A stretch of 64,000 nucleotides of DNA from Squalus acanthias. Lineage: Eukaryota. The DNA lies in assembly GCA_030390025.1 (NCBI GenBank), contig CM059431.1:150414001-150478000 (forward strand), given 5' to 3'. Below the pieces are notes generated by a model. It saw nothing but the letters and a program-made list of their open reading frames with translations, was not told the origin of the DNA and did not search any database. The translations under genes were made by a program, and so were the position numbers. Below, piece by piece: positions 1-58,744 of the stretch. How positions within the stretch are numbered: position 1 is the first letter of the stretch; each line of letters begins with the position of its first letter.

Positions 1-231
1 ACTGTCACTCAGTAACACCTCTCCCCCGCACCTTGTGTTACTGGCTGTATCTCTACTGATAATCCAGTTTCCTCTCACTGTCACTCAGTAACCCCTCTCC
101 CCCAGCGCCCTGTGTTACTGACTGTATCTCCACTGATAATCCAGCTCCCTCACACTGTCACTCAGTAACCCCTCTCCCCCAGCGCCCTGTGTCACTGACT
201 GTATCTCTACTGATAATCCAGTTTCCTCACA
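1..231. repeat. ~77-bp minisatellite, 3 copies (cut by window edge)
   Basis: actgtcactcagtaac... restarts at 1, 77 and 154. Confidence 0.9.
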
Positions 232-522: not shown

Positions 523-3500
523 GTAAGGTGTGGCGTCGAGTCAGCCTCTTTCACCCCCCTCCCCCTCCCCCCATTCCATACCCCTGTTAAATTCGCATTC
601 AGGAACAGAAAGCTGTTGGGTTGTTACACAAGATTGTGGGATCGGGGCTGATGTATTAGCATGGATTGAGGATTGGTTAACTAACAGAAAACAAAAGTGA
701 GAAGTCGCGCAACACCAGGTTATAGTCCAACAGTTTTATTTGAAATCACAAGCTTTCGGAGCGGCTGCTCCTTCGTCAGGTGAACACCCGGATGTCCTAT
801 CGTATCGGGCAACGGAGCCCTGTGTGAGAACCTCTCTGGATACGTTGAGGGACATCCTGAAACCCATCGTACAGGGAACCCCCAGCTTCTGTCGCGACAC
901 TACAGACTTCTTGCAGAAACTCAGCACCCATGGACCAGTTGAACCAGGAATAATCCTCGCCACGATGGACGTATCGGCACTCTACACCAGTATCCCCCAC
1001 GATGACGGCATCGCTGCGACAGCCTCAGTACTCAACACCAACAACAGCCAATCTCCAGACGCCATCCTACAACTCATCCGCTTCATCCTTGACCACAATG
1101 TCTTCACCTTCGACAACCAGGACTTCACCTGAAGAAGGAGCAGCCGCTCCGAAAGCTTGCGATTTCAAATAAAACTGTTGGACTATAACCTGGTGTCTTG
1201 CGACTTCTCACTTTTGTCCACCCCAGTCCAACACCGGCATCTCTACATCATAACAGAAAACAGAGTAGGAATAAACGGGTCATTTTCGGGTTGGCAGGCT
1301 GTAACGAGTGGGGTACTGCAAGGATCAGTGCTTGGGCCTCAGCTATTCACAATCTGCATGGGGGGATCTTGGCTACAAGGACAGGTTGGAGAAGCTGGAT
1401 TTGTTTTCATTAGAGCAAAGGAGGTTGAGGGGTGATTTGATAGAGGTGTACAAGATTATGACTGGTTTGGATAGGCTAGACGGGGAAAGGCTGTTCCCAC
1501 TAGTTGATGGTACAAGGACTAGGGGACACAGATTTAAGGTTTTGGGCAAGGGATACAGGGGGGATGTGAGGGAAAACGTTTTTACGCAGCGAGTGGTGAG
1601 GACCTGGAACTCTCTGATGACGGAGGTGGTGGAAGCGGAGACACTCAATGTTTTCAAGGGGAGACTGGATAGGCACTTGAGGGAAATAAACTTGCAGGGC
1701 TACGGGGACAGAGTGGGGGAATGGGACTGACTGGATTGCTCTACAGAGAGCCGGCACGGACTCGATGGGCCGAATGGTCGTCTCCTCTGCCTCGATGATT
1801 GACATCAATGACTTTGAGAGGACCGGGTGTAATGTATCCAAGTTTGCTGACGATACCATGCTAGGAGGGAACGTAAGCTGTGAGGAGGCTGCAAATGGAT
1901 ACAGACAAGTTAAGTGAGTGGGCAAGAACATGGCAGATGGAATATAATGTGGAGAAATGTGAAATTGTCCACTTTGGTAGGAAGAATAGAAAAGCAGAAT
2001 TGTTGGGACACTAGTAAATGTTGGCATTCAGAGGGATTTGGGGTCCTTGTACACGAATCACAGAGTTAACATGCAGGTATAGCAAGCCATTAGGAAGGCA
2101 AGTGGTATGTTGGCCTTTATTGCCATGGGGTTGGAGTGTAAGAGTAAGGAAGTCTTGCTGCAATTGTACAGGGCCTTGGGGAGACCACACCTGGAGTACT
2201 GTGCACAGTTTTGGTCTCCTTACCTAAGGAAGGATGTACTAGCCTTCAAGGTGGTGCAACAGAGGGTCACTGGATTGATTCCTGGAATGCGAGGGTTGTC
2301 CTATGAGGAGAGATTGAGTAGATTGGGCCGATACTCGAGTTTAGAAGAATGTGAGAAGTAGCACAACACCAAGTTATAGTCCAAAAGTTTTATTTGAAAT
2401 CACGAGCTTTCGGAGCGCTGCTCCTTCGTCAGGTGAAGTGAAGAGATGCATATAGGCACAGCATATATAGTCAGAGAACACTGCCAGATGATTACAGTTA
2501 ATCTTTCTAACTGCCCTTTATCACACCTCGGCAGAGAGATAATCACGGCAATCAAAGGTGTGGATGGTGTCCAAACAGGGCAGTCAGGAAAACATTACAT
2601 CAAAGACAATGAGGTTGGGTCACAAGGGGTCAATTGTGGCAGATGCTGGGGTCTGTATGGAAAACAAAAAACCTTTTTTTGCTGGAAATCACAGCAGGTC
2701 CGGCCGCATCTGTGTAGAGAGAACAAGCCAACGACGACTCGAGTCTGGATGACTCTACGTCAGGTGGGGTTACATGTAGCATGACATGAACCCAAGATCC
2801 CGGTTGAGGCCGTCCTCATGGGCGCGGAACTTGGCTATCAGTTTCTGCTCGATGATTTTGCGTTGTCGTGTGTCTCGAAGGCCGCCTTGGAGACACTGCG
2901 ACAACGTATGAACGGACACTGCGCAACAATCGCCAGGCAGGAGTGTTCCCTCCCAGTCGGGGAACACTTCAGCATTCAAGGACATTCAGCCTCCGATCTT
3001 CGGGTAAGCGTTCTCCAAGGTGTGATAAAGGGCAGTTAGAAAGATCAACTGTAATCATCTGGCTGTGTTCTCTGACTATATACGCTGTGCCTATATGTAT
3101 CTCTTCACTTCACCTGACGAAGGAGCAGCGCTCCGAAAGCTTGTGATTTCAAATAAAACTGTTGGACTATAACCTGGTGTTGTGCGACTTCTCACATTTG
3201 TCCACCCCAGTCCAACACCGGCATCTCCACATCGAGTTTAGAAGAATGAGAGGTGATCTCATTGAAACACAAAATTCTTACAGGGTTGATGCCGAGAGGT
3301 TGTTTTCCCCCCTGGCTGGAGCGCCCAGAACTAGGGGGCATAGTCTCAGGATAAGGGGTCGGTCATTTAGGACTGAGATGAGGAGAAATTTCTTCACTCA
3401 AAGGGTTGTGAATCTTTGGAATTCTCTACCCCAGAGGGCTGTGGGTGCTCAGTCGTTGAGTATATTCAGGACTGAGATCGATAGATTTTTGGACACTAGG

Positions 3501-6500
3501 GGAATCAAGGGATTTGGAGATCGGGCGGGAAAGTGGAGTTGAGGTCGATGATCAGCCACGATCTTATTGAATAGCGGAGCAGGCTCGAGGGGCCGTCTGG
3601 CCTACTCCTGCTCCGATTTTTTAATGTTCTTGCATTCGTAATTACATCGAATATACAGCAAGGAAGCGGACCTTTCGGCCCAACTAGCCTGTGCCGGTGT
3701 TTCTGCTCCACGCGCGTCTCCTCCTGTTCCATTTGCCTCCCCTTGGCCTTTCAGCCCATGTTTCTAGTCCCCTTTTCTCTCAACAACTGCTACTTGCAAT
3801 GGTATCGCACCTTTAACACAGTGAAATGTCCCAAGGCGCATCACAGGCGCATGATCCAAATTTGGCACCGAGCCACAAGAGATATTAGGGGAGGTGACCA
3901 AAAACTTGGTCAAAGTGGTAGGTATTAAGGAGAGAGAGAGAGAGAGAGAGACGCAGAGGTTTAAAGAGGAAATTCCAGAGCTTGAGGCCTAAGCAGCCTC
4001 TGTCTGTCTCTGCCCGTCTCTGGCTGGCACCCCCCCTCGCCCCCTCCCTTTGCTCCTTGACCCTTTGCTGTCCCCTCTCTGGTTGAACGCTCTTTGTTTT
4101 TAGGGAGCACCAGTAGCCGGGACCTGAGCGATGAGGATGACGAGAACGAGTTCTTCGACGCGATGGAGGACGTGGCAGAGTTTATCACGGTGCAGGCAGA
4201 TTCACGGTACCACAGGTCAGTGTCACGCTGGGGGCGGGGTGCGGGTCAGACCGCACAGGAGCTGTATCTTGCAGTATGTTTCCTTCCCCCCCACCCCCCC
4301 CCCCCTGTTCCGCCCCCCCCTCCCCCTCCTCGCCTACACAGTAGGCATCACGTCTCGCTGAGCAGCAGTCCCGATGTTCTTCGGTATCCTAAGCGAGTGT
4401 GCGAGCACAGAGTGTCCGCAGATCTAAAAAGTGGAAAGAATTCCCGTGCCGTACTCTTTGTGGGATCTGTGCGCAAATTGGCGGCAGCTGTCGACAACGC
4501 AACAGCGACTACAGACCGCGCAGTGCTTTGGGTCGTCCAGAGAATGCGAAAGGCACAAATCAACAAAGGCGGACTTGTATTTATATAGTGCCTTCCACGG
4601 CCGCAGGACGTCCCAAAGCCCTTCACAGCCAATGAAGTCCTTTTTTGGAAGTATAGTCTGTTGTAATGTAGGGAAACGCGGCAGCCAATCTGCACACAGC
4701 GAGCTCCCACAAATTGTCATATATCCCCATTGCCCTTATGTGGAATCAGAATCACAGAATCCCCACAATGCAGATAGAGGCCATTTCGTCCCATCGAGCC
4801 TGCACCGACATATATCCCACCCTATCCCCGTAACCCCACGTATTTAATCCCCCTAACACTAAGGGTCAATTTATTATAGCCAAATCAACCTAACCCGCAC
4901 ATCTTTGGACTGTGGGAGGAAACCGGAGCACCCGGAGGAAACCCACGCAGACACGGGGAGAATGTGCAAACTCCACACAGACAGTCACCCGGGGCCGGAT
5001 TCGAACCCGGGTCCCTGGCGCTGTGAGGCAACAGTGCTAACCACTATGCCACCGTGTTGCCATGCCGGAGTATTGTAGGATATTGTCATATATCCCCATC
5101 ATCCTAATGTGGGGGTTTTTATAGGATACTGTTATCAATGTTCCCCCTCTCTTTTTGGCTGCGCGGCCCCTTCACAGTTACGCACATGCACAAAACTTAA
5201 CATTGGAAAAGCCAGTCCCCGGGCTGTGCAGCTTCGAGGGAACGTTGATTGTCTTGTATCCCTGTTGCCCTTATGTGGGGGTATTGTAGGATATTCCCAT
5301 AAATCCTTTATCTCCAATACAAGTTTGAGGACGAGGAAACGCTGATAACATCTGATTCATATTTTTATTAAATCTAGTCGATGTGCTAATAAAACGCATC
5401 CCCTTCCCTGCAGAGTGTATGCGATGTCGGTGCAATACTCACGTATCAAGGGCACCTTCACGAGGTCGCAGGTGTGTCGTCTTGACTGCTTAACGCTAGC
5501 CTCAGAAACACCAGCTTAAAGTTCCCCAGGATCTCCAGTGTGTTGTGTCCTTTATAGACTTCTCCCCTCAGTGAGTCTACGCAAAAACCCCTCTCTCGTT
5601 GAACTCGCTGATGAGAAACCGTGTGCATCGGTCCGTCCTTATCTCTTCCCAGTAACGCTAGCCTCTTCATACCATCCTCCAGTCTCCTGAACTGAATTAC
5701 TATGTGCCTACTACATACCTCATAAGACCACAAGGAATAGGAGCAGGAGTAGGCCATTTGGCCTTTCAAGCCTTGTCCGCCATTCAATAAAATCATGGCC
5801 GATCTTCTACCTCAACTCCACTTCCCCGCCTGATTCCCCATATCCCTTGATTCCCCTCATCTCTGATTGGACAACGTTCCTGGGAGGACTGGAGGTAGAT
5901 AAACAATGGCAAGCATTTAAAGATAGAATGACAAAATTGCAAAAATTGTTTATACCAATCTGGCATAAAAGGAAATCTAAAAAGGTGACTCAACCGTGGA
6001 TAACGGGGGAAATTAGAGACAGCATAAAATCCAAAGATAGGGCGTATAAAATAGCCAAAAAAAGCGCCAGAGCGGAAGATTGGGAACAGTTTAAGATAGA
6101 GCAAAGGAGGACAAAGGGCTTAATCAAGAGGGGCAAAATAGCTTACGAAAGCAAGCTGGCGGAAAATATAAAAACTAACTCCAAAAGCTTTTATAAGTAT
6201 ATCAAGAGGAAAAGACTGGTGAAAACCAAAGTTGGCCCATTGCAGTCAGATACGGGGGAATATATAACGGGAAATAAGGAAATGGCAGACCAACTAAATG
6301 CATACTTTGGGTCAGTCATTACGAAGGAAGACACAAAAAACCTCCCTGGGATATCGGGAAAAATAGGGACATTTGCAAAGGAGGAACTGACGCAAATCAA
6401 TATCTCTAAGGATATGGTGTTAAGGAAGCTAAAGGGATTGAAGGCGGACAAATCCCCAGGGCCTGATAACATGCATCCTAGGGTGCTGAAGGAGGTGGCC

Positions 6501-9500
6501 CTAGAGATAGCGGATGCACTAAGTATGATTTTTCAGAATTCATTAGACTCGGGAACAGTGCCCATGGATTGGAGGGTAGCTAACGTTACCCCACTATTCA
6601 AAAAGGGGGGTAGGGAAAAAGCAGGTAATTACAGACCTGTAAGCCTTACATCAGTTGTGGGCAAAATGCTGGAGTCCGTCATTAAGGATGAAATAGCGGA
6701 GCACTTAGCAAATGGGGACAAGATAGGACAGAGTCAACATGGATTTACAAAGGGTAAATCGTGCTTGACTAATCTATTGGAATTTTTTGAGGGAGTAACT
6801 GGTAAAATAGATGGGGGAGAGCCAGTAGATGTGGTGTACCTGGACTTCCAAAAGGCCTTCGATAAGGTCCCACATAAAAGATTAGCAGGGAAAATTGAAG
6901 CTCATGGGATAAAGGGGAAAGTATTGACGTGGATAGAGAACTGGCTGTCAGATAGAAAACAGAGAGTTGGAATAAACGGCTCATTTTCTGAATGGCAGGC
7001 AGTAACAAGTGGGGTACCACAGGGATCTGTCCTGGGTCCCCAGCTGTTCACAATTTACATTAATGACCTGGATCAGGGAGTCGGATGCAGCATTTCCAAA
7101 TTTGCAGACGACACTAAACTAGGAGGGGGGGTGGGCTCAGAGGAGGAGACCAGGAAGCTCCAGAGCGATTTGGACAGACTGGGTGATTGGGCGGATAAAT
7201 GGCAGATGCACTATAATGTGGACAAGTGCGAAGTTATCCACCTTGGGTGCAGGAACGGGAGGGCAAATTATTATTTAAATGGCAATAAATTGGGAGAGGG
7301 GGAAGTACAGAGAGACCTGGGTGTTCTTGTACACCAGTCACTGAAGGCGAGCATGCAGGTGCAACAGGCGGTCAAGAAGGCAAACGGTATGCTGGCCTTC
7401 ATAGCAAAAGGGTTGGAATACAGGAACAGGGATACGTTGCTGCAGCTGTACAGGGCACTGGTGAGACCACACCTCGAGTACTGTGTACAGTTTTGGTCGC
7501 CTCATCTGAGGAAAGATGTTCTTGCCATGGAGGGGGTGCAGCGGCGATTCACCAGGCTGATACCAGGAATGGCGGGATTGACCTATGAGGAGAGACTATG
7601 TAGTTTAGGGATGTACACACTGGAGTTTAGAAGATTGAGAGGGGACCTCATAGAAGTGTATAAAATTCTGACAGGTCTAGACAGACTAGATGCAGAAGGA
7701 ATGTTTCCCTTGGCGGGTGAGAACAGAACTAGAGGACATAATTTAAGGATAAGGGCTAAACCATTTAGGACAGAAATGAGGGGGAATTTCTTCACTCAGA
7801 GGGTGGTGAACCTGTGGAACTCATTGCCACAGAGGGCAGTGTACGCCAGCTCATTAAATATATTTAAGAGGGAATTAGATATATTTCTACAGGCAAAAGG
7901 GGTTAAGGGTTACGGAGAGAAGGCGGGGACGGGATACTGAATTGGAGGATCAGCCATGATCTCATTAAATGGCGGAGCAGGCTCGAAGGGCCGGATGGCC
8001 TACTCCTGCTCCTATCTTCTATGTATCTATGTATCTCCAAAAATCTATCAAACTCAGCCTTGAATATACTCAACGACTGAGCATCTACAACCCTCTGGGG
8101 CAGAGAATTCCAAAGATTCACCACCCTCTTGAGTGAAGTCATTTCTCCTCGTCTCAGTCCTAAATGGCCGACCCCTCATCCTGAGACTACAATCCTTCGT
8201 TCTAGACACTCCAGTCAGGGGAAACAACCTCTCCGCATCTGCCCTGTCAAGCCCTCGAAGAATTTTCTCCAGTTTAACGTGTTCCCCTCTCATACTTCTA
8301 AACTCCAGAGAGCATAGGCACATTCTACTCCATCTCTCCTCATAGGACAGCCCTCTCATCCCAAGAATCAATCTAGTGAAGCTTTGTTGCAAGTATAGCC
8401 TTCCTTTGGTAAGGAGACCAAAACTGTACACCGTGCTCCAGGTGTGGTCTCGCCAAAGCCCTGTACAATTGTAGCAAGACTTCCTTACTCTTCTACTCCA
8501 AACCCCTTGCAATAAAGGCTGACCTACCATTTGCTTTCCTAATTGCTTGCTGTACCTGCATGTTACCTTTCTGTGATTCGTGTCGAAGGACCCCCTAAAC
8601 CCCATCTTATGGAGGTTAATGAGTCTCCACTGCTTCAAGCCTGACCTGTAAGCTGTTGCGACCACTGCAGAACCAATCTCTAATGTGTGGATATTAACAC
8701 TATTTGTTCACCCATTACCCCACTGTCCTCGCTGACCTACATTGGCTCCTGGTCCAGCAACGCCTTGAAGTGAAACATCGCCATCCTCGTGTTCAAATCC
8801 CTCCATGGCCCTCGCCTTCCCCCTGCTCCCGATATCGGTAACCTCCTCCTCCAGCCCGACAACCCTTTGTGATCTCTGCACTCCTCCAATGCTGGCCTCT
8901 ACATTCCAACAGTGACTACAATTCAAAAGTGCTTCACTTGGCTGGAAAGCATTTCTGGGACGTCACGAGGTTGTGAAAGGCGCGATATAAATTCTCTTGC
9001 GCATCCCCCATTTTCATTGCTTCACCATTGGCGGCCGTGCCTTCCGCTGCCTTGGTTTTTATATACATTTAAGATTGAGAAACATTTGTGATAGCCACCC
9101 TCCTCTACTTGGGCTGTGCTGAGCCCCTTTCTTTTAACGCTGCCTGTGACCCCCATCTGCCCCAGACTGTCTGTGACCCTCCTCTCCCCCCAGGAACTGT
9201 CTGTGATCACCCCCCGGACTGTCTGTGACCCTCCTCTCCCCCAAAACCCGGAATGCCTGAACCAAACCCACCAACCCCCGCCCTGGCTGGACTGTCTGAC
9301 GTTCCCCTCCCCCAATTCTGTCAGTGAACTCCACCTCTCTCCCCACCCCCACCCCCCCAGGTCTGTCGGTGAGGGATTGGGAGGAGGTGTTATAATGCTC
9401 TTGCCCTCGCTAACACGGGCTCTCTCTGATTACAGACGGACGGGCAGCAACCTCAGTGGGGCCAGCAGTGAGGGAGCCTTTGAGGATCAAGTGAGTATTC

Positions 9501-12500
9501 GCCCTCTCTCTCTCCACCCACCCAGCCCTCGGCTCAGCCGACTCTGTCTCTGCTCCTGGTAGTTGGTTGTTGGGGTGGTTGAAGGGATGGGGGTTCGAAG
9601 GGGAGCCTCCAGCACTCTCTCTCCGGGGTTGTCCTCAGTACCCTAGCCCAGTACCTCCGGCTGCTCCATTTCAGCTGCCAACTTAGGGATTCTCTTCAGT
9701 CACTGAGAGGAACCGAGTGTCCCAGACAGTGGGAGGGAGGGATGTTAATCCTCTGTCTGTCTGTCCTGTGCCCGGCTTCCCCCCTCTCCTCGGTCTCTCT
9801 CTCTCTCTCTCACTCCCTCTCCTTCCTCCACCCCCCCCCCCCCCCCCTCTCCTTCCTTCCTCTCTCCTCCCTCCCCTCCCATGTGAGAGTGGAGAGCGAT
9901 GTCCCGGTGATGGGTCGGCGTGGAGTGGGATGTCCCGGTGATGGGTCGGTGTGGAGAGCGATGTCCCGGTGATGGGTCAGTGTGGAGTGGGATGTCCCGG
10001 TGATGGGTCAGTGTGGAGTGGGATGTCCCGGTGACAGGTCGGTGTGGAGTGGGGTGTCCCGGTGATGGGTCGGTGTGGAGTGGGATGTCCCGGTGATGGG
10101 TCGGTGTGGAGCGGGATGTCCTGGTGACGGGTCGGTGTGGAGTGGGACGTCTCGGTGATGGGTCGGCGTGGAGTGGGATGTCCCGGTGACGGGTCGGTGT
10201 GGAGTGGGATGTCTCGGTGATGGGTCGGTGTGGAGAGCGATGTCCCGGTGATGGGTCAGTGTGGAGTGGGATGTCCCGGTGATGGGTCGGTGTGGAGAGC
10301 GATGTCCTGGTGACGCGTCGGTGTGGAGAGCGATGTCCCGGTGATGGGTCGGTGTGGAGAGCGATGTCCTGGTGACGGGTCGGTGTGGAGTGGGATGTCC
10401 CAGTGATGGGTCAGTGTGGAGTGGGATGTCCCGGTGATGGGTCGGTGTGGAGCGGGATGTCCTGGTGACGGGTCGGTGTGGAGTGGGATGTCTCGGTGAT
10501 GGGTCGGCGTGGAGTGGGATGTCCCGGTGACGGGTCGGGGTGGAGAGCGATGTCCCGGTGATGGGTCGGTGTGGAGTGGGATGTCCCGGTGACGGGTCAG
10601 TGTGGAGTGGGATGTCCCGGTGACGGGTCGGTGTGGAGTGGGATGTCCCAGTGATGGGTCAGTGTGGAGTGGGATGTCCCGGTGATGGGTCGGTGTGGAG
10701 CGGGATGTCCTGGTGACGGGTCGGTGTGGAGTGGGATGTCTCGGTGATGGGTCGGCGTGGAGTGGGATGTCCCGGTGACGGGTCGGGGTGGAGAGCGATG
10801 TCCCGGTGATGGGTCGGTGTGGAGTGGGATGTCCCGGTGACGGGTCAGTGTGGAGTGGGATGTCCCGGTGACGGGTCGGTGTGGAGTGGGATGTCCCGGT
10901 GACGGGTCGGTGTGGAGTGGGATGTCCCGGTGACGGGTCGGTGTGGAGTGGGATGTCCCGGTGACGGGTCGGTGTGGAGAGGGATGTCCCGGTGATGGGT
11001 CGGTGTGGGAGAGAGCGGGATGTATTATTGATAAGGTATTTTTAAATTGTCCTCACTCGCTGTGTTTGAATCTTACCGAGGGCGATTTATTCAGATTAAC
11101 AGGAATGATTGTAGTTTTTCTTTGAGCTATGAAAGTTTAAGGCACCTCTCCAATGTTTTTTCAGATGTACTGTACTTTCTGCGATTAGTTGGAGAGCGGG
11201 TAGGCAAGTGGGTTTTGGTTAGATTGTTGCAGAGGTTCTACTGTTACTGGAGCGATGATTTAACTATCTCCTGGTCTGCTGTGATCCCTGTAATGAAGGT
11301 GGCTGGCAGATGTGACCCGGGTCGATGTATTCGAATCGTAGAATGATGCAGCAACAGAAGGAGGCCGTTCAGCCCATCGTGCCTGTGTAGGCTCTGTGAA
11401 AGATCCTATCCGATTAGTCCCACTTCCCCCATCTGTGTCCCCATAGCCCTGCAAATTTTCTCCCTTCAAGTATTTACCCAATTCCCCTTTTTGAAAGTTA
11501 ATATTGAATCTGCTTCCACCGCCCTTTCAGGCAGCGCATTCCAGATCATCATAACTTGCCGCGTTAAGAATGTTTTCCTCATGTCTCCTCTGGCAATCGC
11601 CTTCAATCTGTGACCTCTGGTTACCGACCCTCCCACCACTGGAGACAGTTTTGTCTTATTGACTCTACCAAAACCCTTCATGATTTTCAACACCTATTAA
11701 ATCACCCCTTAACCTTCTGTGCGCTGCGGCGCCCAGCCCCAGTTTCTCCACGTATCTGAAGTCCCTCATTCCTGGTACCATTCCAGTAAATTTCTTCTGC
11801 ACCCTCTCCAAGGAAGGAGGTTCTTGCCATGGAAGGAGTTCAGCCAAGATTCACAAGGCTGATACCTGGGATGGCAGGAATGACGTATGAGGAGAGATTG
11901 GGTCGATTAGGCTTATATTAGCTAGAGTTTAGAAGAATGAGAGGGGATCTCATCGAAACATATAAAATTCTGACAGGTCTGGACAAACTAGATGCAGGAA
12001 GGATGTTCCCGATGGTCGGGGAGTCCAGAACCAGGGGTCACAGTCTAAGGATAAGGGGTAAGCAATTTAGGACTAAGATGAGGAGGAATTTCTTCACCCA
12101 GAGAGTGGTGAACCTGTGGAATTCTCTACCACAGAAGGCAGTAGAGGCCAATTCATTAAATAGATTCAAGAAGGAGTTGGATATATTTCTTAAGGCTAAA
12201 GGGATCAAGGGATATGGGGAGAAAGCAGGGACAGGGCACTGAATTTGGATGATCAGCCATGATCGCATTGAATGGCGGTGCAGGCTAGAGGAGCCGAATG
12301 GCCTACTCCTGCTCCTATCTTCTATATTTCTATGTCCTTCCTGAAGTGTGGTGCCCAGAATTGGATACACTACTCCAGCTGGGGCCTAACCAGTGTTTGA
12401 TAAAGTTTCAGCACAACTTTCTTGTGTTAGTGCTCTCTGCCTCTATATATAAAGCCAAGGATCGCACTGCAACAGTAGGATCCAATTGCAATGAGTTCAC

Positions 12501-24500: not shown

Positions 24501-24839
24501 GGATCGTTTCGGGGGAGGGTGTAATGTTTTTAACGGTGTGCTGCTTTGAACCCCCTCCCCAGGTCAGCCACCACCCTCCGGCCGCTGCCCATCACGCCGA
24601 GTCCAAGAATGGCTGGGCACTGCGCCAGGAGATAGCCATCGCCAGCAAGTTCCGAGGCAAATACCTGTCCATCATGCCCCTGGGTAAGTGTGCCAGTGAT
24701 TCACCAGCTGGGCAACAATCCCAGCTTGCTGTGTGGGTGGTTTTTAAAAAAAAAATATCATTCATTATATTCCTTCTCCGGTCGTGGGCATTGCTGGCAA
24801 AGCCAGCATTTATGGGGTCAGACTGGGTAAGGACCGGAG

Positions 24840-24910
<71 letters not shown>

Positions 24911-24967
24911 CCCGGACTGGGTAAGGACTGGAGTTACCTATAGTCCCAGACTGGGTAAGGACCGGAG

Positions 24968-25013
<46 letters not shown>

Positions 25014-25167
25014 AGACACAGACACAGACACAGACACACAGGCCCGGACTGGGTAAGGATTGGAGTCACCTGTAGTCCCAGACTGGGTAAGGATTGGAGT
25101 CACCTGTAGTCCCAGACTGGGTAAGGACTGGAGTCACCTGTAGTCCCAGACTAGGTAAGGACCGGAG

Positions 25168-25215
<48 letters not shown>

Positions 25216-25933
25216 AGACACAGACACACAGGCCCGGACTGGGTAAGGATTGGAGTCACCTGTAGTCCCAGACTGGGTAAGGATTGGAGTCACCTGTAGT
25301 CCCAGACTGGGTAAGGACTGGAGTCACACATGGTCCCAGACTAGGTAAGGACTGGAGTCACCTGTAGTCCCAGACTGGGTAAGGATTGGAGTCACCTGTA
25401 GTCCCAGACTGGGTAAGGATTGGAGTCACCTGTAGTCCCAGACTGGGTAAGGACTGGAGTCACCTGTAGTCCCAGACTAGGTAAGGACCAGAGTCACCTA
25501 TAGTCCCAGACTAGGTAAGGACCGGAGTCACACATAGTCCCATACTGGGTAAGGACTGGAGTCTCACATAGTTCCAGACTTGGTAAGGACCGGAGTCTCA
25601 CATAGTCCCAGACTGGGTAAGGACCGGAGTCACACATAGTCCCAGACTGGGTAAGGACCGGAGTCACACATAGTCCCAGACTGGGTAAGGACCGGAGTCA
25701 CACATAGTCCCAGACTGGGTAAGGACCGGAGTCACACATAGTCCCAGACTGGGTAAGGACTGGAGTCTCACATAGTTCCAGACTGGGTAAGGACCGGAGT
25801 CTCACATAGTTCCAGACTGGGTAAGGACCGGAGTCTCACACAGACAGGCCCGGACTGGAGTCTCAGACACACACACAGGCCCGGACTGGAGTCTCAGACA
25901 CACACACACACAGGCCCGGACTGGAGTCTCACA

Positions 25934-25977
<44 letters not shown>

Positions 25978-25996
25978 CCCGGACTGGAGTCTCACA

Positions 25997-26046
<50 letters not shown>

Positions 26047-26131
26047 CCCGGACTGGAGTCTCAGACACACACACACACAGGCCCGGACTGGAGTCTCACA
26101 CACACACACACAGGCCCGGACTGGAGTCTCA

Positions 26132-26171
<40 letters not shown>

Positions 26172-26225
26172 CCCGGACTGGAGTCTCACACACACACACA
26201 GGCCCGGACTGGAGTCTCACACTCA

Positions 26226-26289
<64 letters not shown>

Positions 26290-26302
26290 CCCGGACTGGA
26301 GT

Positions 26303-26340
<38 letters not shown>

Positions 26341-29300
26341 CCCGGACTGGAGTCGCGGACACGCAGGCACACGGACTGGAGTGTCACGCGGAGCCCAGAA
26401 ATGTGGGTAATAGAATTACCGTTTACCGGCTCTTCCCCCCCCCCCCCCCCCCCCCCCCCCTCCTCCACACACATGTCCACTGACCTGCCTCTGGTGCTTT
26501 TTAAGTGTACGATGTGCCAATCGTCTGATGCACGTGTCTTCTGTGCTGCAGGCTCCATCCACTGCACCTTCCATCAAAGCGGCAACCACTACACGTGGAG
26601 AAAAGTCACCACCACAGTGCACAACATCATCGTAGGCAAGCTGTGGATCGACCAGGTGAGGGAGCGCTGCACTGTCGGCGGGACAGTACTGAGGGAGCGC
26701 TGCACTGTCGGAGGGGCAGTACTGAGGGAGCGCTGGACTGTCGGCGGGGCAGTACTGAGGGAGCGCCGCACTGTCGGAGGGACAGTACTGAGGGAGCGCC
26801 ACACTGTCGGAGGGACAGTACTGAGGGAGCACTGCACTGTCGGCGGGGCAGTACTGAGGAAGCGCTGCACTGTCGGAGGGACAGTACTGAGGGAGCGCTG
26901 CACTGTCGGAGGGGCAGTACTGAGGGAGCACTGCACTGTCGGAGGGGCAGTACTGAGGGAGTGCTGCACTGTCGGAGGGGCAGTACTGAGGGAGCACTGC
27001 ACTGTCGGAGGGGCAGTACTGAGGGAGTGCTGCACTAAGGGAGGGGCAGTACTGAGGGAGGGTCACTGCGCTGTCAGTTGGGCCAGTACTGAGGGAGCGC
27101 TGCACTGTCAAAGGGGCAGTACTGTGGGAGCGCTACACTGTCGGAGGGACAGTACTGAGGGAGCACCGCACTGTCGGAGGGGCAGTATCGAGGGAGCGCT
27201 GCACTGAGGGAGGGGCACTGCGCCGTCAGATGGGGCAGTACTGAGGGAGTGCTGCACTATCGAAGGTCCCGTCTTTCGGGTGAGATGTTAAACCGAGGCC
27301 CCGCCTGCTGTCTCAAGTGGACGTAAAAGATCCCATGGTCACTATTTGGAAGAAGAACAGGGGAGTTCTCCCCAGTGTCCTGGGGCCAATATTATCCCTC
27401 AACCAACATCACTTTTTAAAAAAAAAAAAACATTTGATCCAGTCATTTACTGCATTAGTTTTTGTGGAAGTTTTCTGTGCGCTCATTGGCTGCCGCCTTC
27501 CATACCTTACAATAGTGACAATACTTCAAACGTACATCATTGGCAGACAGCGGGGCAGTGGGATTAGTTTAGGATTGTTACAGGGCTATGGGGAGAGCAG
27601 GGCTGTGGGATTAGTTTGGGATTGATACAGGGCTATGGGGAGAGAGCGGGGCAGTGAGATTAGTTTGGGATTGATACAGGGCTATGGGGAGAGAGCGGGG
27701 CAGTGAGATTAGTTTGGGATTGATACAGGGCTATGGGGAGAGAGCGGGGCAGTGAGATTAGTTTGTGATTGATACAGGGCTATAGGGAGAGAGCGGGGCA
27801 GTGGGATTAGTTTGGGATTGATACAGGGCTATGGGGAGAGAGCAGGTCAGTGGGATTAGTTTGGAATTGCTCCAGAATGTAACCAATCGTACCGTGCTGG
27901 GCCAAATGGCCTCTGCTGTAACTGTGCGGTTGCATAAAAATCAATCTGGGTGACACTGAGATCGAGGACCCTGCTGCTAATTCTGGTGCAGAGTTTTGGG
28001 GATAGATTATCAGGATTAAAAAGTCCATTGGATACCGAACCCAGTTACTACAACTTCAGTCGTATTTCACAGTGCTATCTGGGATTAAATTTAACCCTTT
28101 TATCCCTGGTATCATTCTAAGGACAGGTTGCATGGACTAGGCTTGTAATCTCCTGAATAAAGATTAAGGGGTCATCTCATTGAGGTGTTTCTGATGGTTA
28201 AAGGAGTTGATAGGATAGATAGAGAGCAACTGTTTCCACTGGTGGGGGGAGTCCAGGACAAGGGGGCTTAACCTCAAAATGAGAGCTAGACCGTTCAGGG
28301 CTGATGTCAGGAAGCATCTCTTCATTCAAAGGGTAGTGGAAATCTGGAACTCTTTCTCTCTCTTTCCCCCCCCCCCCCACCAAAAAAAAGCTGTTGAGGC
28401 TGGGGGTCAATTGATAATTTCTAAACTGAGGTCGATACATTTTTGTTCGGTAGGGGTATTAAGGGTTACAGAACCAAAGCGGGTAAATGAAGTTGAGGTA
28501 CAGACCAGCCACAATCTAATTGAATGGCGGAACAGGCTCTCGGGGCTGAACGGCATCCTCCTGTTCCTGTGCAACAGACTCGAGGGGCTGAATGGCCTCC
28601 TCCTGTTCCTGTGTAACAGGCTCGAGGGGCTGAATGGCCTCCTCCTGTTCCAATATAACAGGCTCGAGGGGCAGAATGGCCTCCTCCTGTTCCAATATAA
28701 CAGGCTCGAGGGGCAGAATGGGCCTCCTCCTGTTCCTGTGTAACAGGCTCGAGGGGCTGAACGGCCTCCTCCTGTTCCAATGTAACAGGCTCTCGGAGCT
28801 GAACGGCCTCCTCCTGTTCCTGTGTAACAGGCTCGAGGGGCTGAACGGCCTCCTCCTGTTCCTGTGTAACAGGCTCGAGGGGCTGAATGGCCTCCTACTG
28901 TTCCAATGTAACAGGCTCGAGGGGGCTGAATGGCCTCCTCCTGTTACATAAGAACATAAGAAATAGGAGCAGGAGTAGGCCAATCGGCCCCTCGAGCCTG
29001 CTCCGCCATTCAATAAGATCATGGCTGATCTGATCCTAACCGCCAATCTACTATCTATCACAGAACCATCTCCTGCATCTAACAGAATTGCACACACGAA
29101 ATAGGAGCAGAATCAGGCTACACGGTCCCTGGGCCCGCTCCACTAACCACAGGGCCATGACCGATCCGAACCTAGACTCATGTCCAAATTCCTGCCCGCT
29201 CCCCGTAACCCTTAATGCCCTTTACTTCTAGGAAACTGTCTATTTCTGTTTTAAATTTAATTAATGTTGTAGCTTCTACAGCTTTTTGTGGCAGCATATT

Positions 29301-32300
29301 CCATGGACCTACCACCCTCTGAGTGAAGTAGTTCCTCCTCATCTCAGTTTTGAAAGAGCAGCCCCTTATTCTAAGACTATGTCCCCTAGTTCTAGTCTCA
29401 CCCGTCATCGGGAACATCCTCCCCGCATCCACCCGATCCAACCCCTTCACAATCTTATATGTTTCAATAACGGCCTCCTCCTGTTCCTGTGTAACAGGCT
29501 GTCGGAGCTGAACGGCCTCCTCCTGTTCCTGTGTAACAGGCTCGAGGGGCTGAACGGCCTCCTCCTGTTCCAATGTAACAGGCTCTCGGAGCTGAACGGC
29601 CTCCTCCTGTTCCTGTGTAACAGGCTCGAGGGGCTGAATGGCCTCCTCCTGTTCCAATATAACAGGCTCGAGGGGCAGAATGGGCCTCCTCCTGTTCCAA
29701 TATAACAGGCTCGAGGGGCAGAATGGGCCTCCTCCTGTTCCAATGTAACAGGCTCTCGGAGCTGAACGGCCTCCTCCTGTTCCTGTGTAACAGGCTCGAG
29801 GGACTGAACGGCCTCCTCCTGTTCCAATGTAACAGGCTCTCGGAGCTGAACGGCCTCCTCCTGTTCCTGTGTAACAGGCTCGAGGGGCTGAATGGCCTCC
29901 TCCTGTTCCTGTGTAACAGGCTCGAGGGGTTAAATGGCCTCCTCCTGTTCCTGTGTAACAGGCTCGAGGGGTTAAATGGCCTCCTCCTGTTCCTGTGTAA
30001 CAGGCTCGAGGGGCTGAATGGCCTCCTCCTGTTCCAATGTAACCGGCTCGAGGGGGCTGAATGGCCTCCTCCTGTTCCTGTGTAACAGGCTGTCGGAGCT
30101 GAACGGCCTCCTCCTGTTCCTGTGTAACAGGCTCGAGGGGCTGAACGGCCTCCTCCTGTTCCAGTGTAACGGGCTCTCTGAGCTGAACGGCCTCCTCCTG
30201 TTCCAATGTAACAGGCTCTCGGAGCTGAACGGCCTCCTCTTGTTTCTGTGTAACAGGCTCGAGGGGCTGAATGGCCTCCTCCTGTTCCTGTGTAACAGGC
30301 TCGAGGGGTTAAATGGACTCCTCCTGTTCCTGTGTAACAGGCTCGAGAGGCTGAATGGCCTCCTCCTGTTCCAATGTAACAGGCTCGAGGGGCTGAATGG
30401 CCTCCTACTGTTCCTGTGTAACAGGCTCGAGAGGCTGAATGGCCTCCTCCTGTTCCTGTGTAACAGGCTCGAGGGGCTGAATGGCCTCCTACTGTTCCTG
30501 TGTAACAGGCTCGAGGGGGCTGAATGGCCTCCTCCTGTTCCTGTGTAACAGGCTCGAGGGGTTAAATGGCTTCCTCCTGTGTTCCGAGGATACTTGAACT
30601 GACCAGTACTTACCGTCGCGCTCTTGTTTTTGTGCTAACAGAGTGGGGAAATCGACATCATCAACAAGAGGACAGGGGACCGGTGCCACCTAAAGTTTGC
30701 ACCTTACAGCTATTTCTCCCGGGACGTGGCACGGAAGGTAGGTTCCCCTCTCACTCTCACTCACACTCGCCCGTTATCCACACCTTTGCCCCCAGCCCCG
30801 TGCTCGCTGACCGACATTGACTCTCGGTCGCCCTGCCCAATTTCCATTCCTCTGTTCAAACCCCTCCATGGCTTCACCCCTTCCCGATCTCTCTAACCTC
30901 CTCTAGCCCTACAACCCTCAGATATCTGCGTTCCTCCAATTCTGGCCGCTTGCACATCCCCCCCCCACCCACCCACCCACCCACGATTTTAATCGCTCCA
31001 CCATTGGCGGCCGTGCCTTCAGCCGCTGAGGCCCCAAAGACTGGAATTCCCTTCCTAAACCCCTCTCCCTCTATCTCCTCCTTTAAGACGCTCCTTAAAA
31101 CCTACCTCTTTGTCCAAGCTTTTGGTCAGCTGTCCTAATATTGTGGCTCGATAATTTTGTTCGATAATCGCTCCTGTGAAGCGCCTTGGGACTTACTACA
31201 GTAAAGGTGCTGTATGAATGGAAGCTGTTTTGAAGCTGTCCCCCTCAAACCTCCCTGCCCCCCCCTGCTCTCCCCCCAGATATCCATCATATTCTTATTG
31301 CTAACTTGTTCTTTGGATGTGGGTGGAGCTTACAAGGGTCCCATTGATTGTCCATTTCCCTACTTTGGCTCTTTATGCCCTGAAAGCAATGAAATAGTGT
31401 GGGACCTGAGTCACATGTAGGTCAGGTCAGGTAGGGTGGGAGAAGGTTGCCTTCTCAATACAACTCCTGGGAAGCATTCGGGTGTCAATTCCCCCCTCCC
31501 CTACCCTTATTGGGCAGGAATCTATCAGGAAAGGCTGGGGCTCTTTTCCAGGGATGAGGGGTGACCTCATGGAGGTCTTTAAGATAATGAAAGGGTTTGA
31601 TGGGGTAGACATGGAGAAGGTGCTTCCACTTGTGTGGGGTTGGGGGAGGAAGTTCAAAACTGGGGGCCATCAAAGTAAGATGGTCACTAATAAATCCAAC
31701 AGAAGAATTCAGGAGGAATTGATTTACCCAGAGAGTGATGAGAAGGTGGAACTCGCTACCCCAGGTACTGGTTGAGGCGAATAGCATAGATCCATTTACT
31801 GGAAGCTTGGTAAACACATGAGGGAGATAGGAATAGATGGATATGTTGATAGGGTGGGAGGATGCTCGCTTGGAGCATAAACACCGGCACGGAGCTGTGG
31901 GCTGAATCATAGAATCCTACAGCACAGAAGGAGGCCATTCGGCCCGTCGTCTGTTCCGCCTCTTTGAAAGAGCTCTCCCACTAATCCCACATCCCAGCTT
32001 TTTCCGTCTTTGGGATGAGACGTTAAACTGCTCTCTCGGGTAGACGTAAAAGATCCCATGGCACTATTCGAAGAAGAGCAGGGGAGTTCTCCCCGGTGTC
32101 CTGGCCAATATTTATGCTTCAATCAACATCACTAAAAACAAATGATCTGGTCATTATCACATTGCTGTTTGTGGGAGCTTGCTGTGCACAAATTGGCTGC
32201 CGCGTTTCCCACATTACAAGCACGACTACACTCCAAAAGTACTTCATTGGCTGTAAAGCGCTTTGAGACGTCCGGTGGTTGTGTAAGGCGCTATAGAAAT

Positions 32301-35300
32301 GCAAGTCTGTCTTTCTTTCATAAGCCTGCAAATTAGTCCTCTACAAGTACACGTCCAATTGCCTTGTGACAGTTCCTATGGAATCTGACTCCACCGCTCT
32401 TTCAGGTAGTGTGGTCCAGATCTTAACAAACCCTCTCCATGTGAAGAAATCTCTCCTCCTTTCCCCTCTGGTTCTTGTGCCAATTATTTTAAATCAGTGA
32501 CCTCTGGTTATCGACCTGGTTGCCAGAGGAAACGGTTTCTCCCTGCTTTCTCGATCAAAAACCCCTTTTTAAATTTCGAATACCTGTAATAGGCCCCCCC
32601 TTAACCTTCTCTGCTCTAAGGAGAACAACCCCAGCTTCTCCAGTCTCTCCACACAGCTGAAGTCCCTCATCCCTGGTAGCACCCTGGTCAACCTCCGCTG
32701 TACCCTCTCCAGGGCCTTGATGTCCTTAAACGCAGGGCCCAGAATTGGACACAATGCTCCAGCTGAGGCCTAATCAAAGATTTGTAAAGGTTCAGCATGA
32801 CTTCCTTCTTTTTGTATTCAATGCCCCTATTTACAAAGCCAAGTATTCCAAGCGCTTTCTTACCCGCCTTATCAACTTGCCCTGCCACCTTCCAAGATTT
32901 GTGACGATGCACCCCCAAGTCCCTCTGTTCTTGTAGCCCTCCCCCGTGCCCGCTAAGGAGATTTACCAGAATGCTACCAGGGATGAAAGACTTTCAATAT
33001 GTGGAGAGACTGGAGAAGCTGGGGTTGTTCTCCTTAGAGCAGAGAAGCTTAAGGGGAGATTTGATGGAGGTGTTCAAAATTGTGAAGGGTTTTGACAGAG
33101 TAAATAGGCAGACTCTGTTCCCAGTGGCAGGAGGGTCGGTAACCAGAGGACACAGACTTAAGGTAGTTGGCAAAAGAACCAGAGGCAACATGAGGGGGAA
33201 AAAAATGTCTGCAACGAGTTATGATCTGGAATGCACTGCCTGAAAGGGTGGTGGAAGCAGATTCAATAGTAACTTTCAAAAAGGGAATTGGATAAATACT
33301 TACATAGAATTACATAGATTGTACGAGTTTAAAAGAATGAGAGGGGATCTCATTGAAACGTATAAAATTCTGACAGACTGGATGCAGGGAGGATGTTTCC
33401 CCTGACTGGGGGATCTAGAACGAGGGGTCACAGTCTCAGGATATGGGGGAGGACATTTAGGACTGAGATGAGGAGAAATTTCTTCACTCAGAGGGTGGTG
33501 AACCTGTGGAATTCTCTACCACAGAAGGCGATGGAGGCCAAGTCACTGAATATATAGAAGGAGATAGATAGATTTCTAGACACAAAAGCCATCAAGGGGT
33601 CTGGGGAGAGAGCGGGAATATGGGATTGAGATGGAGGATCAGCCATGCTCTTATGGAATGGCGGAGCAGGCTCGAAGGGCTGAATGGCCTACTCCTGCTC
33701 CTATTTTTCTATGTACAGCACAGAAACAGGCCATTTGGCCCAACTGGTCCGTGCCAGTGTTCGTGCTCCACACCAGCCTCCCCCCACCCTTCTTCATATC
33801 ACCCATCAGCAGGACCCTCTATATTCCTTTCCCCCTCATGTATTTATCGAGCTTCCTCTTAAATGCGCACCACGTGGTTTACTCCTGATCCCCCTCAGAG
33901 CAACTAGGAACAGGCAACATGTGAGGACATGCCAGCATTGGGCAGATGCTGCTCGCAAATCTAGCAGCTTAACAAACTATATCACTGCATCATTACAGTG
34001 ACGAAGGCAAATACTTACCTCCTTCTGGGCTGTGTGATTCTATGATGGTTTGGGGCATTGCTGATGGTGAATTAAACACGATAAAAAAAGCATAAACACT
34101 GTGGGTGCTGGAAACGTTATGGGTGTGCGGTTTGAGATGTGGAGCGATTGCCTGACGTCTGACTTCTTTTGGGTTTTTTTATCGCTGGGGTCGTAGGTCA
34201 CTGGTGTTGTGACTGACATCGGGGGCAAAGCTCACTACATCCTCTCGGGGACGTGGGACGAGAAGATGGACTACTCGCGGGTCCTGCACAGCAGCAAAGG
34301 GGAGAACGGCACGGAGGGGAGGCAGAAGACGGTGTACGAGACCCTGCGGGGGAAGGAGCTGTGGAAGAGGCACAAAGCCCCGTGAGTTGTTCCCAGGCAG
34401 GCGCACGCGAGCGCCCCTCAACCTCCGAGACACTCCCCACTCCGGGTCCACACCATCCCAACTTGGAGCTATATCGGCCGGTCCTTCGCTGCCACTGGGT
34501 CCAAATCCTTGAACTCCCCTTCCCGACAGCGCTGCGGGAGCACGGCACGGACTGCACCAGATCATCAGCCCCCCTCCTCCGGTGCTGACCTGAATTGACT
34601 CCCGGTCCGGCAACACCTCGCTTTTTCAAATTCTCCACCCTTGTCTTCAAATTCCTCCATGGCCTTGCCCCCCCCCCCCTCCATATCTCCGTAAACTCCT
34701 CCAGCCCTACATCCCTCCGAGATCTCTGCACTCCTCCAATTCTGGCTTCTTGCGCACTCTCCCCCCCCCCCCCCCCCCCCCCCCACCCCCCCCGATTTTA
34801 ATCGCTCACCATTGGCAGCCGTGCCTTCAGCTGCGAAGGCCCTAAACTCCGGGATTCCCTCCCTAAACCCCCCTCTCCGCCTTTAAGACGCTCCTCAAAA
34901 CCTTACTCTTTGACCAAGCTTTTTGGCCATCTGTCCTGATGTCTCCTGATGTGGCTCGGTGTCGACTTTAATTTGAGAAGTCGCACAACACCAGGTTATA
35001 GTCCAACAGTTTTATTTGAAATCGCAAGCTTTCAGAGCGCTGCTCCTTCGTCAGGTGAAGTGAAGGAATACAAATCGGCAGCTCCGAAAGCTTGTGATTT
35101 CAAATAAAACTGTTGGACTATAACCTGGTGTTGTGCGACTTCTCACATTTGTCCACCCCAGTCCAACACCGGCATCCCCGCATCGTGGACTTTAATTTGC
35201 TAATTGCTCCTGTCAAGCAACCTGGGGCGTTTTGACGAGGTTAAAGGTGCTGTATAAATGGGAGCTGTTCAAGAAGAAGGCTCACCACCACCTTCTCAAG

Positions 35301-42154: not shown

Positions 42155-42895
42155 TTCAGTGGGCAGCGCTCTGTCTCGCCCTCTGAGTCAGAAGGTTGTG
42201 GTTTCGATCCCGCACTTCAGAGACTTGAGCCCTGATATTCCAGGCTGACACTCCCCCCTGGTGCCAGTACTGAGGGGGTGCTGTACTGTCTGAGGGAGCG
42301 CTGCTGTCTGAGGGATGGTACTGAGGGAGCGCTGCTGTCTGAGGGATGGTACTGAGGGAGCGCTGCACTGTCGGAGGGACAGTACTGAGGCAGCGCCGCA
42401 CTGTCGGAGGGACAGTACTGAGGCAGCGCCGTACTGTCGGAGGGACAGTACTGAGGGAGCGCCGCACTGTCGGAGGGACAGTACTGAGGGAGCGCCTGCA
42501 CTGTCGGAGGGACAGTACTGAGGGAGCGCCGCACTGTCGGAGGGACAGTACTGAGGGAGTGCTGCACTGTCTGTGGTGCAGTCTTTTTAGATGAGAAGTT
42601 GAACTAAGGGGCCTGTCTGCCCCCTCAGGTGGACGTAAAAGATCCCATGGCCACTATTTTGAAGAAGAGCAGGGGGAGTTCTCCCTGTTGTCTGTCAACC
42701 AACATCACTAAAAACCACAGATGATCTGGTCATTTATCACATTGCAGTTTGTGGGATCTTGCTGTGCGTAAAACATTGGCTGTTGCGTTTTCTACACTAC
42801 AATACTGACTACACTTCAATAAAGTACTTTGTTGGATGTAAAGCGCTTTGGGACGTCCTGAGGTTGGTGAAAGGCGCTGTATAAATGCAAGTTCT
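42155..42895 (+). mobile_element. Near-complete Deu-type SINE with internal 33-bp array (~42265-42570)
   Basis: tRNA-like head, array, core GGTGGACGTAAAAGATCCCATGG, tail AAGGCGCTGTATAAATGCAAG. Confidence 0.85.
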
Positions 42896-58742: not shown

Positions 58743-58744
58743 CT

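Follow-up and report, generated by a model that had tools for sequence, protein, structure and literature searches.

Three hammerhead-bearing fold-back insertions in a Squalus acanthias window, very probably dead-on-arrival copies of one Penelope-like element family

The window (the whole 64,000-nt stretch of Squalus acanthias DNA analysed here) carries three insertions with arms in inverted orientation, all located in LINE remnants within introns of an OSBP-family gene. Self-BLAST gives arm-match identities of 89-98% pairwise, places the coordinates of an earlier sequence-only reading as correct to within a few bases, and shows the arms to be the sole part common to all three insertions, with the pLTR inverted in each; no additional copy of arm or cargo was detected within the 64-kb window at E<=0.01. 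The three insertions with inverted arms, five hammerhead motifs (min-HHR) and target duplications (TSDs) of 12, 17 and 12 bp described by that reading were all recovered, by self-BLAST, motif search and empty-site paralogues. The features are as follows.

Insertion 1
682..693 (+), left TSD, 12 bp, its final 3 nt overlapping the inverted arm
691-784 (-) and 1122-1249 (+), arm pair by self-BLAST
691..784 (-), inverted pLTR arm, tail-less, ending 2 nt before the predicted Inr adenine
746..783 (-), min-HHR motif, stems I and II intact
784..1120 (+), RT fragment from the ORF of the element itself (P0003 aa ~129-240, 91-93% identical)
1121..1250 (+), sense arm beginning at the predicted Inr adenine 1122, with a 33-bp tail at 1218-1250
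1125..1162 (+), min-HHR motif, A.C mismatch in stem I
1251..1262 (+), right TSD, 12 bp

Insertion 2
2335..2351 (+), left TSD, 15-17 bp, its final 4 nt overlapping the inverted arm
2348-2531 (-) and 3015-3233 (+), arm pair by self-BLAST
2348..2893 (-), inverted 3'-end copy of the element (GIY-YIG ORF end, UTR, tail-less arm)
2772-2770 (-), stop codon of the inverted GIY-YIG ORF end (protein match, P0003 aa ~603-643)
2400..2436 (-), min-HHR motif, intact, UC cleavage doublet
2891..3020 (+), GIY-YIG fragment (P0003 aa ~563-604, just 3' of the YIG motif)
3018..3231 (+), sense part of the pLTR, reached by skipping ~350 nt at a 3-nt overlap (AGG)
3077-3082, 3105-3110 and 3199-3231 (+), TATA-like signal, Inr-like signal and 33-bp tail of the sense pLTR
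3110..3146 (+), min-HHR motif, intact, predicted cut at 3142/3143
3232..3248 (+), right TSD, 15-17 bp

Insertion 3
34964..34975 (+), left TSD, 12 bp
34974-35080 (-) and 35081-35187 (+), arm pair by self-BLAST
34974..35080 (-), inverted arm with min-HHR motif
35022..35058 (-), min-HHR motif, G-U in stem II, A.C in stem I
35081..35187 (+), sense arm beginning at the 3' strand of stem II, with a 38-bp tail
35188..35199 (+), right TSD, 12 bp

The arrangement is that of an inverted 5'-truncated copy, a sense 5'-truncated copy and a tail between TSDs, the tail being carried by the right arm alone in all three insertions (33, 33 and 38 nt). Internal junctions are different in each, with microhomologies of 0-7 nt at all centres; none of the three centres is a perfect palindrome. 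The RT fragment of insertion 1 has a single frameshift near 850, F-T codons continue across the junction, and an unexplained G at 1121 precedes the Inr-adenine start of the sense arm. The inverted copy of insertion 2 has a ~235-nt 3' UTR between ORF stop and arm (2348-2531), and is linked to the sense GIY-YIG fragment by a 3-nt overlap at 2891-2893; its arm measures 184 bp, so that the length of ~90 bp given earlier fails for this insertion. TSD edges and element ends overlap by 1-4 nt, hence the 17-bp TSD is possibly 15-17 bp, and the start of the inverted arm overlaps the 3' end of the left TSD by 2-4 nt in all three cases. Among 2453 random 30-nt pairs taken as a chance control, at least 12 nt were common in 2 and at least 17 nt in 0, and LINE-like copies in the window span each site without the insert (2, 7 and 3 spanning hits).

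All cargo maps onto one shark ORF, P0003 (aa 130-243, ~563-604 and ~603-643), the RT piece being 93% identical. P0003 has RVT_1 above cut-off, DKG, YIDD, CX4CxxC at 505-513 and VVYLI...YIG; Pfam makes no GIY-YIG call on P0003 itself, although its relatives show GIY-YIG at E<=0.01 in 17 of 20 picked among the top matches (8 above cut-off), and the Neptune-type CX2-5CxxC linker motif occurs in 90 of the 121 relatives that cover the region between RT and EN. The pieces of window cargo, which are short, gave nothing significant in Pfam, nor did P0003 in a PDB sequence search, and a search for the ORF N-terminus found no shark protein. Public shark-type contigs (4 runs, 3 coded organisms) bridge stop codon and UTR, joining the ORF end to the repeat, and their loose ends supply the YIG codons that precede 2891 and continue the ORF normally beyond 3020 and 2893; RT, endonuclease and arm are thus linked through short contigs and through a protein whose source species is related or identical. 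Of the 112 contig joints, 15 were listed; 14 of these occur in one contig each, and the sole recurrent one is normal ORF continuity.

All inserted DNA belongs to one element, made up of the ORF end, a ~450-nt pLTR/UTR with one clear min-HHR, and a tail, and the arms are its pLTR end, of which one copy stands in sense and the other inverted, as published for PLEs. As judged from its sequence, the element would be an EN+ PLE, with a predicted single ORF containing RT and, at its C terminus, GIY-YIG. Its putative placement with the Neptune clade, whose PLEs likewise have a C-terminal GIY-YIG with CX2-5CxxC linker (P0003 505-513), is by this linker motif, which Nematis has too. Searches with the arm motif gave 0 matches in metagenome, viral and prokaryote collections, so that at DNA level they yielded no full-length element, and the protein search found 4 distant metagenome loci and 0 viral ones; in the contig of an unrelated PLE, L004 (36% aa), a truncated copy likewise bears a min-HHR in inverted orientation at its 5' end. 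As side observations, Atlas feature matches place GIY-YIG on 18-31% of members, a lead only; one loose-end consensus (116 contigs, agreement 0.4) hints that the tail ends at or near the start codon; and contig depth, which is not copy number, rises near 3111.

A loose motif search of the window returned six matches, namely the five motifs of the earlier reading (C3 at 779-, 1129+, 2432-, 3114+ and 35054-) and one unrelated (35445), the sixth arm (35081+) opening inside stem II and holding half a ribozyme. The core boxes CUGANGA, GAAA and UH stand in type I order in all five full arms, and every motif has an extra nucleotide A at 9/10.1, G10.1-C11.1 (G-U in one) and a palindromic AGCU at 15.2-16.2, so that the description as Penelope-like insertions with minimal type-I hammerheads agrees with PMC4209133. 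Helix I has 4 bp in three motifs; the other two, with an A.C mismatch in stem I, fail a strict structural scan that retains 3/5 and, in 20 Markov resamples of the window, finds 0 matches each time. A check with hammerhead models had been proposed: the structural scan bears it out in part, while Rfam has no hammerhead match at E<=1 in window positions 1-36000. Conservation of stem II and core, likewise put forward for checking, holds for pairing (stem II paired in 5/5, including one G-U) and for the core boxes; compensatory stem changes number 0 among the five copies, which are 96% identical and differ at N7, loop II, H17 and CpG-type sites. A 4-nt variant of loop II occurs in both arms of insertion 1 and is absent from insertion 2, which indicates that each arm pair comes from one source. 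In public contigs (4 runs), none of 40 listed of 122 substitutions falls in 3106-3157, in a sample biased by an 80% likeness filter, and indels lie in loop II. Four Rfam miRNA matches were rejected as far under the gathering score, as was a hairpin at 2730-2765 (-), just after the stop codon, as a second hammerhead (no GAAA, no stem I, U at A9).

Within an insertion the two hammerheads are on opposite strands, which rules out a cis dimer. Predicted arm:arm duplexes reach -165 and -322 kcal/mol, versus about -19 to -21 for the hammerhead folds, and predicted folding leaves 39 of 41 hammerhead nucleotides in insertion 1 and 40 of 40 in insertion 2 paired long-range. In these models the hammerhead of fold-back copies is most likely silent, because each arm would pair with its antisense twin.

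These results make it very probable that the three insertions are one-off, dead-on-arrival copies of a single autonomous EN+ PLE family (Neptune-type linker), with the hammerhead riding along; two-strand-primed insertion is the proposed route. The RT-GIY-YIG protein would nick the two target strands 12-17 nt apart, and each 3'-OH would prime reverse transcription, via 1-4-nt matches, at one of two internal start sites on the element RNA, the 33-38 nt between these sites corresponding to the tail. Both cDNAs would then stop early or jump by microhomology, to be joined head to head. The hammerhead would be carried along as a pLTR component, its role, if any, being dimer processing of tandem transcripts from full-length elements. 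We infer two-strand priming from three junction sets; the junctions agree with both target strands acting as primers, and the left-TSD overlap of the inverted arm is expected if the top strand primes that arm. Some deletions may postdate insertion.

The arms of insertion 1 stop at the predicted TATA/Inr start, one of them with an extra G (n=1) that is possibly a copy of the cap. It may be, though we hold this doubtful, that the junctions record PLE integration in vivo, with both target strands priming, at the two sites that define the tail, on one element RNA whose capped Inr start lies 7 nt ahead of the hammerhead core. Reverse transcription would run to the end of this RNA, giving a ~130-nt strong-stop cDNA with the cap copied into it (G 1121), and could go on only by a jump. 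Insertion 1 would then have mis-jumped into the RT region at a protein-predicted microhomology, and in insertion 2 the trailing cDNA would re-enter <=9 nt from the stop of the leading one. If true, this would provide one account for pLTR formation, inverted arms and tails.

Similar structures have been described. Canonical EN+ PLE complex insertions (PMC8557442; PMC3846280; Schostak et al. 2008, PMC2377424) likewise have an adjacent inverted truncated copy, a 30-40-bp tail, TSD, microhomology deletions and TATA plus TCACT, the inverted 5'-truncated copy and 30-40-bp tail being reported by Craig et al. 2021 (PMC8557442) and the inverted pLTR, TSD, tail, microhomology deletions and TATA plus TCACT by Arkhipova et al. 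2013 (PMC3846280). The present insertions differ in their shark-type host, in TSDs of 12-17 bp versus 8-10 bp in rotifers, and in being very short rearranged copies without an upstream direct pLTR. Metazoan PLE min-HHRs (Cervera & De la Pena 2014, PMC4209133) are likewise type I, with the same core boxes, extra nucleotide 9/10.1, G10.1-C11.1, palindromic 15.2-16.2 and 4-bp helix I, and opposite-strand pairs 100-700 bp apart are reported; helix II has 5 bp here versus 7-8 in Schistosoma, and two supplements of that paper that were searched contain no shark term. Dimer cleavage is reported by Lunse et al., as cited in PMC6765202. Poseidon_Ac (PAc) of Anolis (Frangieh et al. 2024, PMC11167929) likewise has the HHR in the pLTR, a tail between two RT start sites and AT-rich targets, but is of Penelope/Poseidon type as opposed to the Neptune-type linker here, and its ORF starts at stem II with the tail ~111-118 nt into the ORF, whereas here the tail seems, as a hint only, to lie at or near the start codon. 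In vitro, both strands are cut and extended by a PLE protein, tail length equals the spacing of the two RT start sites, and insertion still takes place with HHR mutants (PMC11167929).

The earlier reading had proposed a mobile unit with interchangeable cargo, that is, a non-autonomous unit defined by two ribozyme arms and copied whole, an explanation to which the restriction of shared sequence to the arms would lend itself. In its favour, PMC3846280 has rotifer pLTRs able to mobilise unrelated DNA in trans, and 10.64898/2026.07.22.740005 proposes that the retrozymes of animals derive from pLTRs and are non-autonomous. The claim was not supported: in both insertions that have cargo, it comes from the ORF of the element itself, P0003, and the centres differ in 3/3, as do the contig joints (14 of the 15 listed, of 112, single-contig), whereas fold-back or MITE-like elements have many copies with one internal structure, a comparison made on this small sample. 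Non-LTR retrozymes (PMC7229834; 10.64898/2026.07.22.740005) are likewise type I, PLE-derived and largely non-coding, but form head-to-tail tandem arrays of HHR units; here the insertions are head-to-head singles with ORF remnants, their arms inverted and on opposite strands, and their transcript is predicted to fold into a single long duplex. We therefore consider a swappable-cargo unit highly improbable.

The same element could have gained its mirror arm if one cDNA or an antisense template primed itself or folded back, with internal deletions and inversions arising later from the instability of palindromes. Long palindromes are unstable, and the microhomologies at all centres agree with such a course. 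PMC3846280 attributes head-to-head repeats in rotifer PLEs to self-priming on an antisense template. Nevertheless, this route is somewhat unlikely, given the lack of a perfect palindrome at all three centres, the inverted arm beginning in the left-TSD overlap in 3/3, and the coincidence within 9 nt, after the ~350-nt skip, of the inverted-copy end and sense re-entry of insertion 2, which two independent deletions would rarely produce (a rough, post hoc argument). A separate question is whether the hammerhead is a vestige retained by descent in the pLTR, without self-cleavage in this family. Stem I is broken in two of five copies, none of the six arms starts or ends at the predicted cut site, the predicted dimer fold is no more stable than two monomers (-19.3, one stem I omitted, versus -21.2), and min-HHR activity in vitro is low (PMC4209133). 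Set against this are the intact core boxes in 5/5, the absence of the listed substitutions from 3106-3157 within that filtered sample, and the cleavage of a lizard PLE hammerhead with protein help (PMC11167929). A vestige thus appears unlikely.

With insertion as truncated copies of one EN+ PLE family as the preferred reading, the finding is mostly ordinary, a known ribozyme and a known insertion shape in a further PLE family of vertebrates. Such fold-back copies are raw material for asking by what route PLEs form inverted arms and tails and what the HHR does (PMC11167929, PMC8557442), and a very abundant shark PLE family with sharp junctions suits a genome-wide test of two-strand priming and the strong-stop jump. 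For the host, intronic fold-back copies would give long double-stranded RNA in pre-mRNA.

Each of the three fold-back Penelope-like (PLE) insertions in the window is bounded by two arms, i.e., by the pLTR end of the element present once in sense and once inverted, as delimited by self-BLAST against the window:

691-784 (-) and 1122-1249 (+), arms of insertion 1
2348-2531 (-) and 3015-3233 (+), arms of insertion 2
34974-35080 (-) and 35081-35187 (+), arms of insertion 3

Arm matches are 89-98% identical, arm-versus-arm differences amount to 5/94, 9/184 and 2/65 sites, and beyond the six arms the three regions have no other match in the window (E<=0.01). Target site duplications (TSDs) measure 12, 17 and 12 bp in insertions 1, 2 and 3; in a chance control, at least 12 nt were common to 2 of 2453 random 30-nt pairs, and 17 nt to none. 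Because every site is crossed, insert-free, by other LINE-like copies of the window (2, 7 and 3 matches, respectively), these are three true insertions, and the inverted arms with 12-17 bp target duplications claimed by the sequence-only reading are borne out. At 2331-2337, on the left TSD edge, the LINE copy hosting insertion 2 lacks 4 nt of its paralogues, a loss that perhaps happened at integration. The insertions lie between or after OSBP-family exons at 324-521, 4106-4222 and 34200-34382 (+), which resemble oxysterol-binding protein 1 (best seen against PDB, E 4e-8; Pfam below cut-off), so all three are most likely intronic. The genome is of shark type, as the reverse transcriptase (RT) piece of insertion 1 shares 93-95% identity with proteins from Heptranchias perlo and ~90% with those from Scyliorhinus and Chiloscyllium (64 matches).

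The window also holds 33-bp minisatellite arrays, those at 26550-27345, 39581-40244 and 42213-42575 being opposite in orientation to that at 58743-63842, and is filled with many further 29-67-bp minisatellites. A hairpin of inverted LINE-end-like repeats (28868-29002) gives weak miRNA matches far below the gathering score, and 35330-35400 (+), tRNA-like by eye with A-box and B-box-like motifs, is probably a SINE head.

The cargo was traced with P0003, a shark protein of 643 aa taken as the ORF of the element, used as tblastn query on the window:

787-1129, RT piece with one frameshift, P0003 aa 130-243
insertion 2, plus strand, endonuclease piece, P0003 aa ~563-604
insertion 2, minus strand, endonuclease piece, P0003 aa ~603-643, ending at the stop

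P0003 carries DKG, RVT_1, YIDD, CX4CxxC (505-513) and VVYLI...YIG, and has 39,071 relatives (E<=0.001). GIY-YIG was found in 17 of 20 hand-chosen long top matches (E<=0.01; 8 above cut-off), and CX2-5CxxC, described in PMC8557442 as a hallmark of Neptune and Nematis, in 90 of the 121 matches covering that region. Public contigs from four runs (3 organisms), aligned to 2490-3290, span the stop codon and UTR of insertion 2; their loose ends are YIG codons ahead of 2891, ordinary ORF continuation beyond 3020 and ordinary continuation of the inverted copy beyond 2893. From these bridges and loose ends it follows that the stretch 2532-2884 represents the reversed 3' end of the element itself, and that insertion 2 reads as an inverted ORF end, UTR and arm followed by a sense endonuclease piece, a skip of ~350 nt, arm and tail.

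The hammerhead motif proposed for five arms is indeed present in five of the six, the sixth beginning within stem II. Stem II is base-paired in all five; a strict structural scan retained three (none in any of 20 Markov resamples), the other two having an A.C mismatch in stem I. No compensatory changes occur in the stems among the five copies. The minimal hammerhead features defined in PMC4209133, which also notes opposite-strand pairs 100-700 bp apart, are found in the motif copies. An Rfam search of 1-36000 returned no hammerhead match at E<=1, which we infer reflects the nearly absent stem III. In the contigs of the four public runs, none of the 40 substitutions listed (of 122) falls within 3106-3157, and indels are located in loop II (80% likeness filter); some degree of motif conservation is suggested. 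A hairpin at 2730-2765 (-), 5 nt past the ORF stop, combines a 5-bp stem with a CUGA-CG-UA box; it resembles a second, degenerate hammerhead and was rejected as one, having neither GAAA nor stem I. Three contigs (runs X3 and X8) that read through this hairpin fall 12 nt short of the window sequence at some point within 2721-2882.

A mobile unit defined by its ribozyme arms, with interchangeable cargo, had been proposed from these features and does not stand: the cargo derives from the element's own ORF, the centres differ in 3/3 insertions, and among 15 joints listed of 112, 14 are single-contig, the recurrent one being normal ORF continuity. The ribozymes also lie on opposite strands within an insertion, so that no transcript carries two sense copies; in predicted folds the arm:arm duplex takes up 39/41 (insertion 1) and 40/40 (insertion 2) hammerhead nucleotides, at -165 and -322 kcal/mol versus about -20 for hammerhead folds; and 0/6 arms begin at the predicted cleavage point 3142/3143. 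According to PMC11167929, insertion of the Anolis lizard element Poseidon_Ac (PAc) persists with hammerhead mutants, and the ribozyme needs protein.

As to how the insertions arose, both target strands would be nicked, each priming on element RNA at one of two internal sites, and the two cDNAs would then be joined via microhomology. Nicking and priming of both strands fits because the inverted arm start overlaps the left TSD end by 2-4 nt and the tail end the right TSD by 1-2 nt in 3/3 insertions, and because one loop variant, missing from insertion 2, is common to both arms of insertion 1. Both steps, at two internal RNA sites, were demonstrated for PAc in vitro (PMC11167929); a less likely but plausible rival is a mirror arm made by self-priming, as in PMC3846280. 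In insertion 2 the sense copy resumes after its skip <=9 nt from where the inverted copy ends. In insertion 1 the sense arm begins precisely on an Inr-like adenine at 1122, which corresponds to 3107; the end of the inverted arm comes 2 nt later than that start point, and an F-T match to P0003 runs on across the junction. Between RT fragment and arm, at predicted +1, the G at 1121 matches neither the pLTR (C) nor the ORF codon (Phe); it is possibly a reverse-transcribed cap, and possibly a point mutation. A capped RNA 5' end with a strong-stop jump would account for this single junction (n=1); insertion 3 has no coincidence like those of insertions 1 and 2. We consider strong-stop combined with two-strand priming rather improbable. 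Within a literature collection holding few subscription journals, searches on twin priming or strong-stop in Penelope-like elements found no title on PLE mechanism.

The fold-back architecture itself is already published: PMC8557442 describes an inverted 5'-truncated PLE copy next to the 5' end, together with a tail of 30-40 bp that often occurs on a single end. PMC3846280 shows pLTRs in inverted orientation, accompanied by a TSD, a tail and deletions at microhomologies, and a TATA-like box that precedes TCACT by ~20 bp. Tails in the window measure 33, 33 and 38 nt. TATATA at 3077 and TCACTT at 3105 (+) lie 22 nt apart within 3077-3110, the same layout as the promoter-like TATA and TCACT of the rotifer Penelope pLTR (PMC3846280), and the predicted start there is 7 nt ahead of the hammerhead core. 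Drosophila elements with variable inverted repeats are reported in PMC2377424 and PMC3681739. The metagenome contig L004 carries an unrelated (36% aa), decayed PLE whose truncated 5' end has an inverted minimal hammerhead (60-97, minus strand, 6-bp stem I).

A literature search on shark Penelope hammerheads found nothing on this family by title; in PMC6155905 the matching word denotes the shape of the ribozyme. Shark terms are absent from the two searchable supplementary files of PMC4209133 and from the searchable ones of PMC8557442. A bioRxiv retrozyme survey (10.64898/2026.07.22.740005) includes one chondrichthyan genome, and its supplements may list this family. The insertions are real and were rightly observed, and the family is either a new or a merely uncatalogued representative of a known type of PLE.
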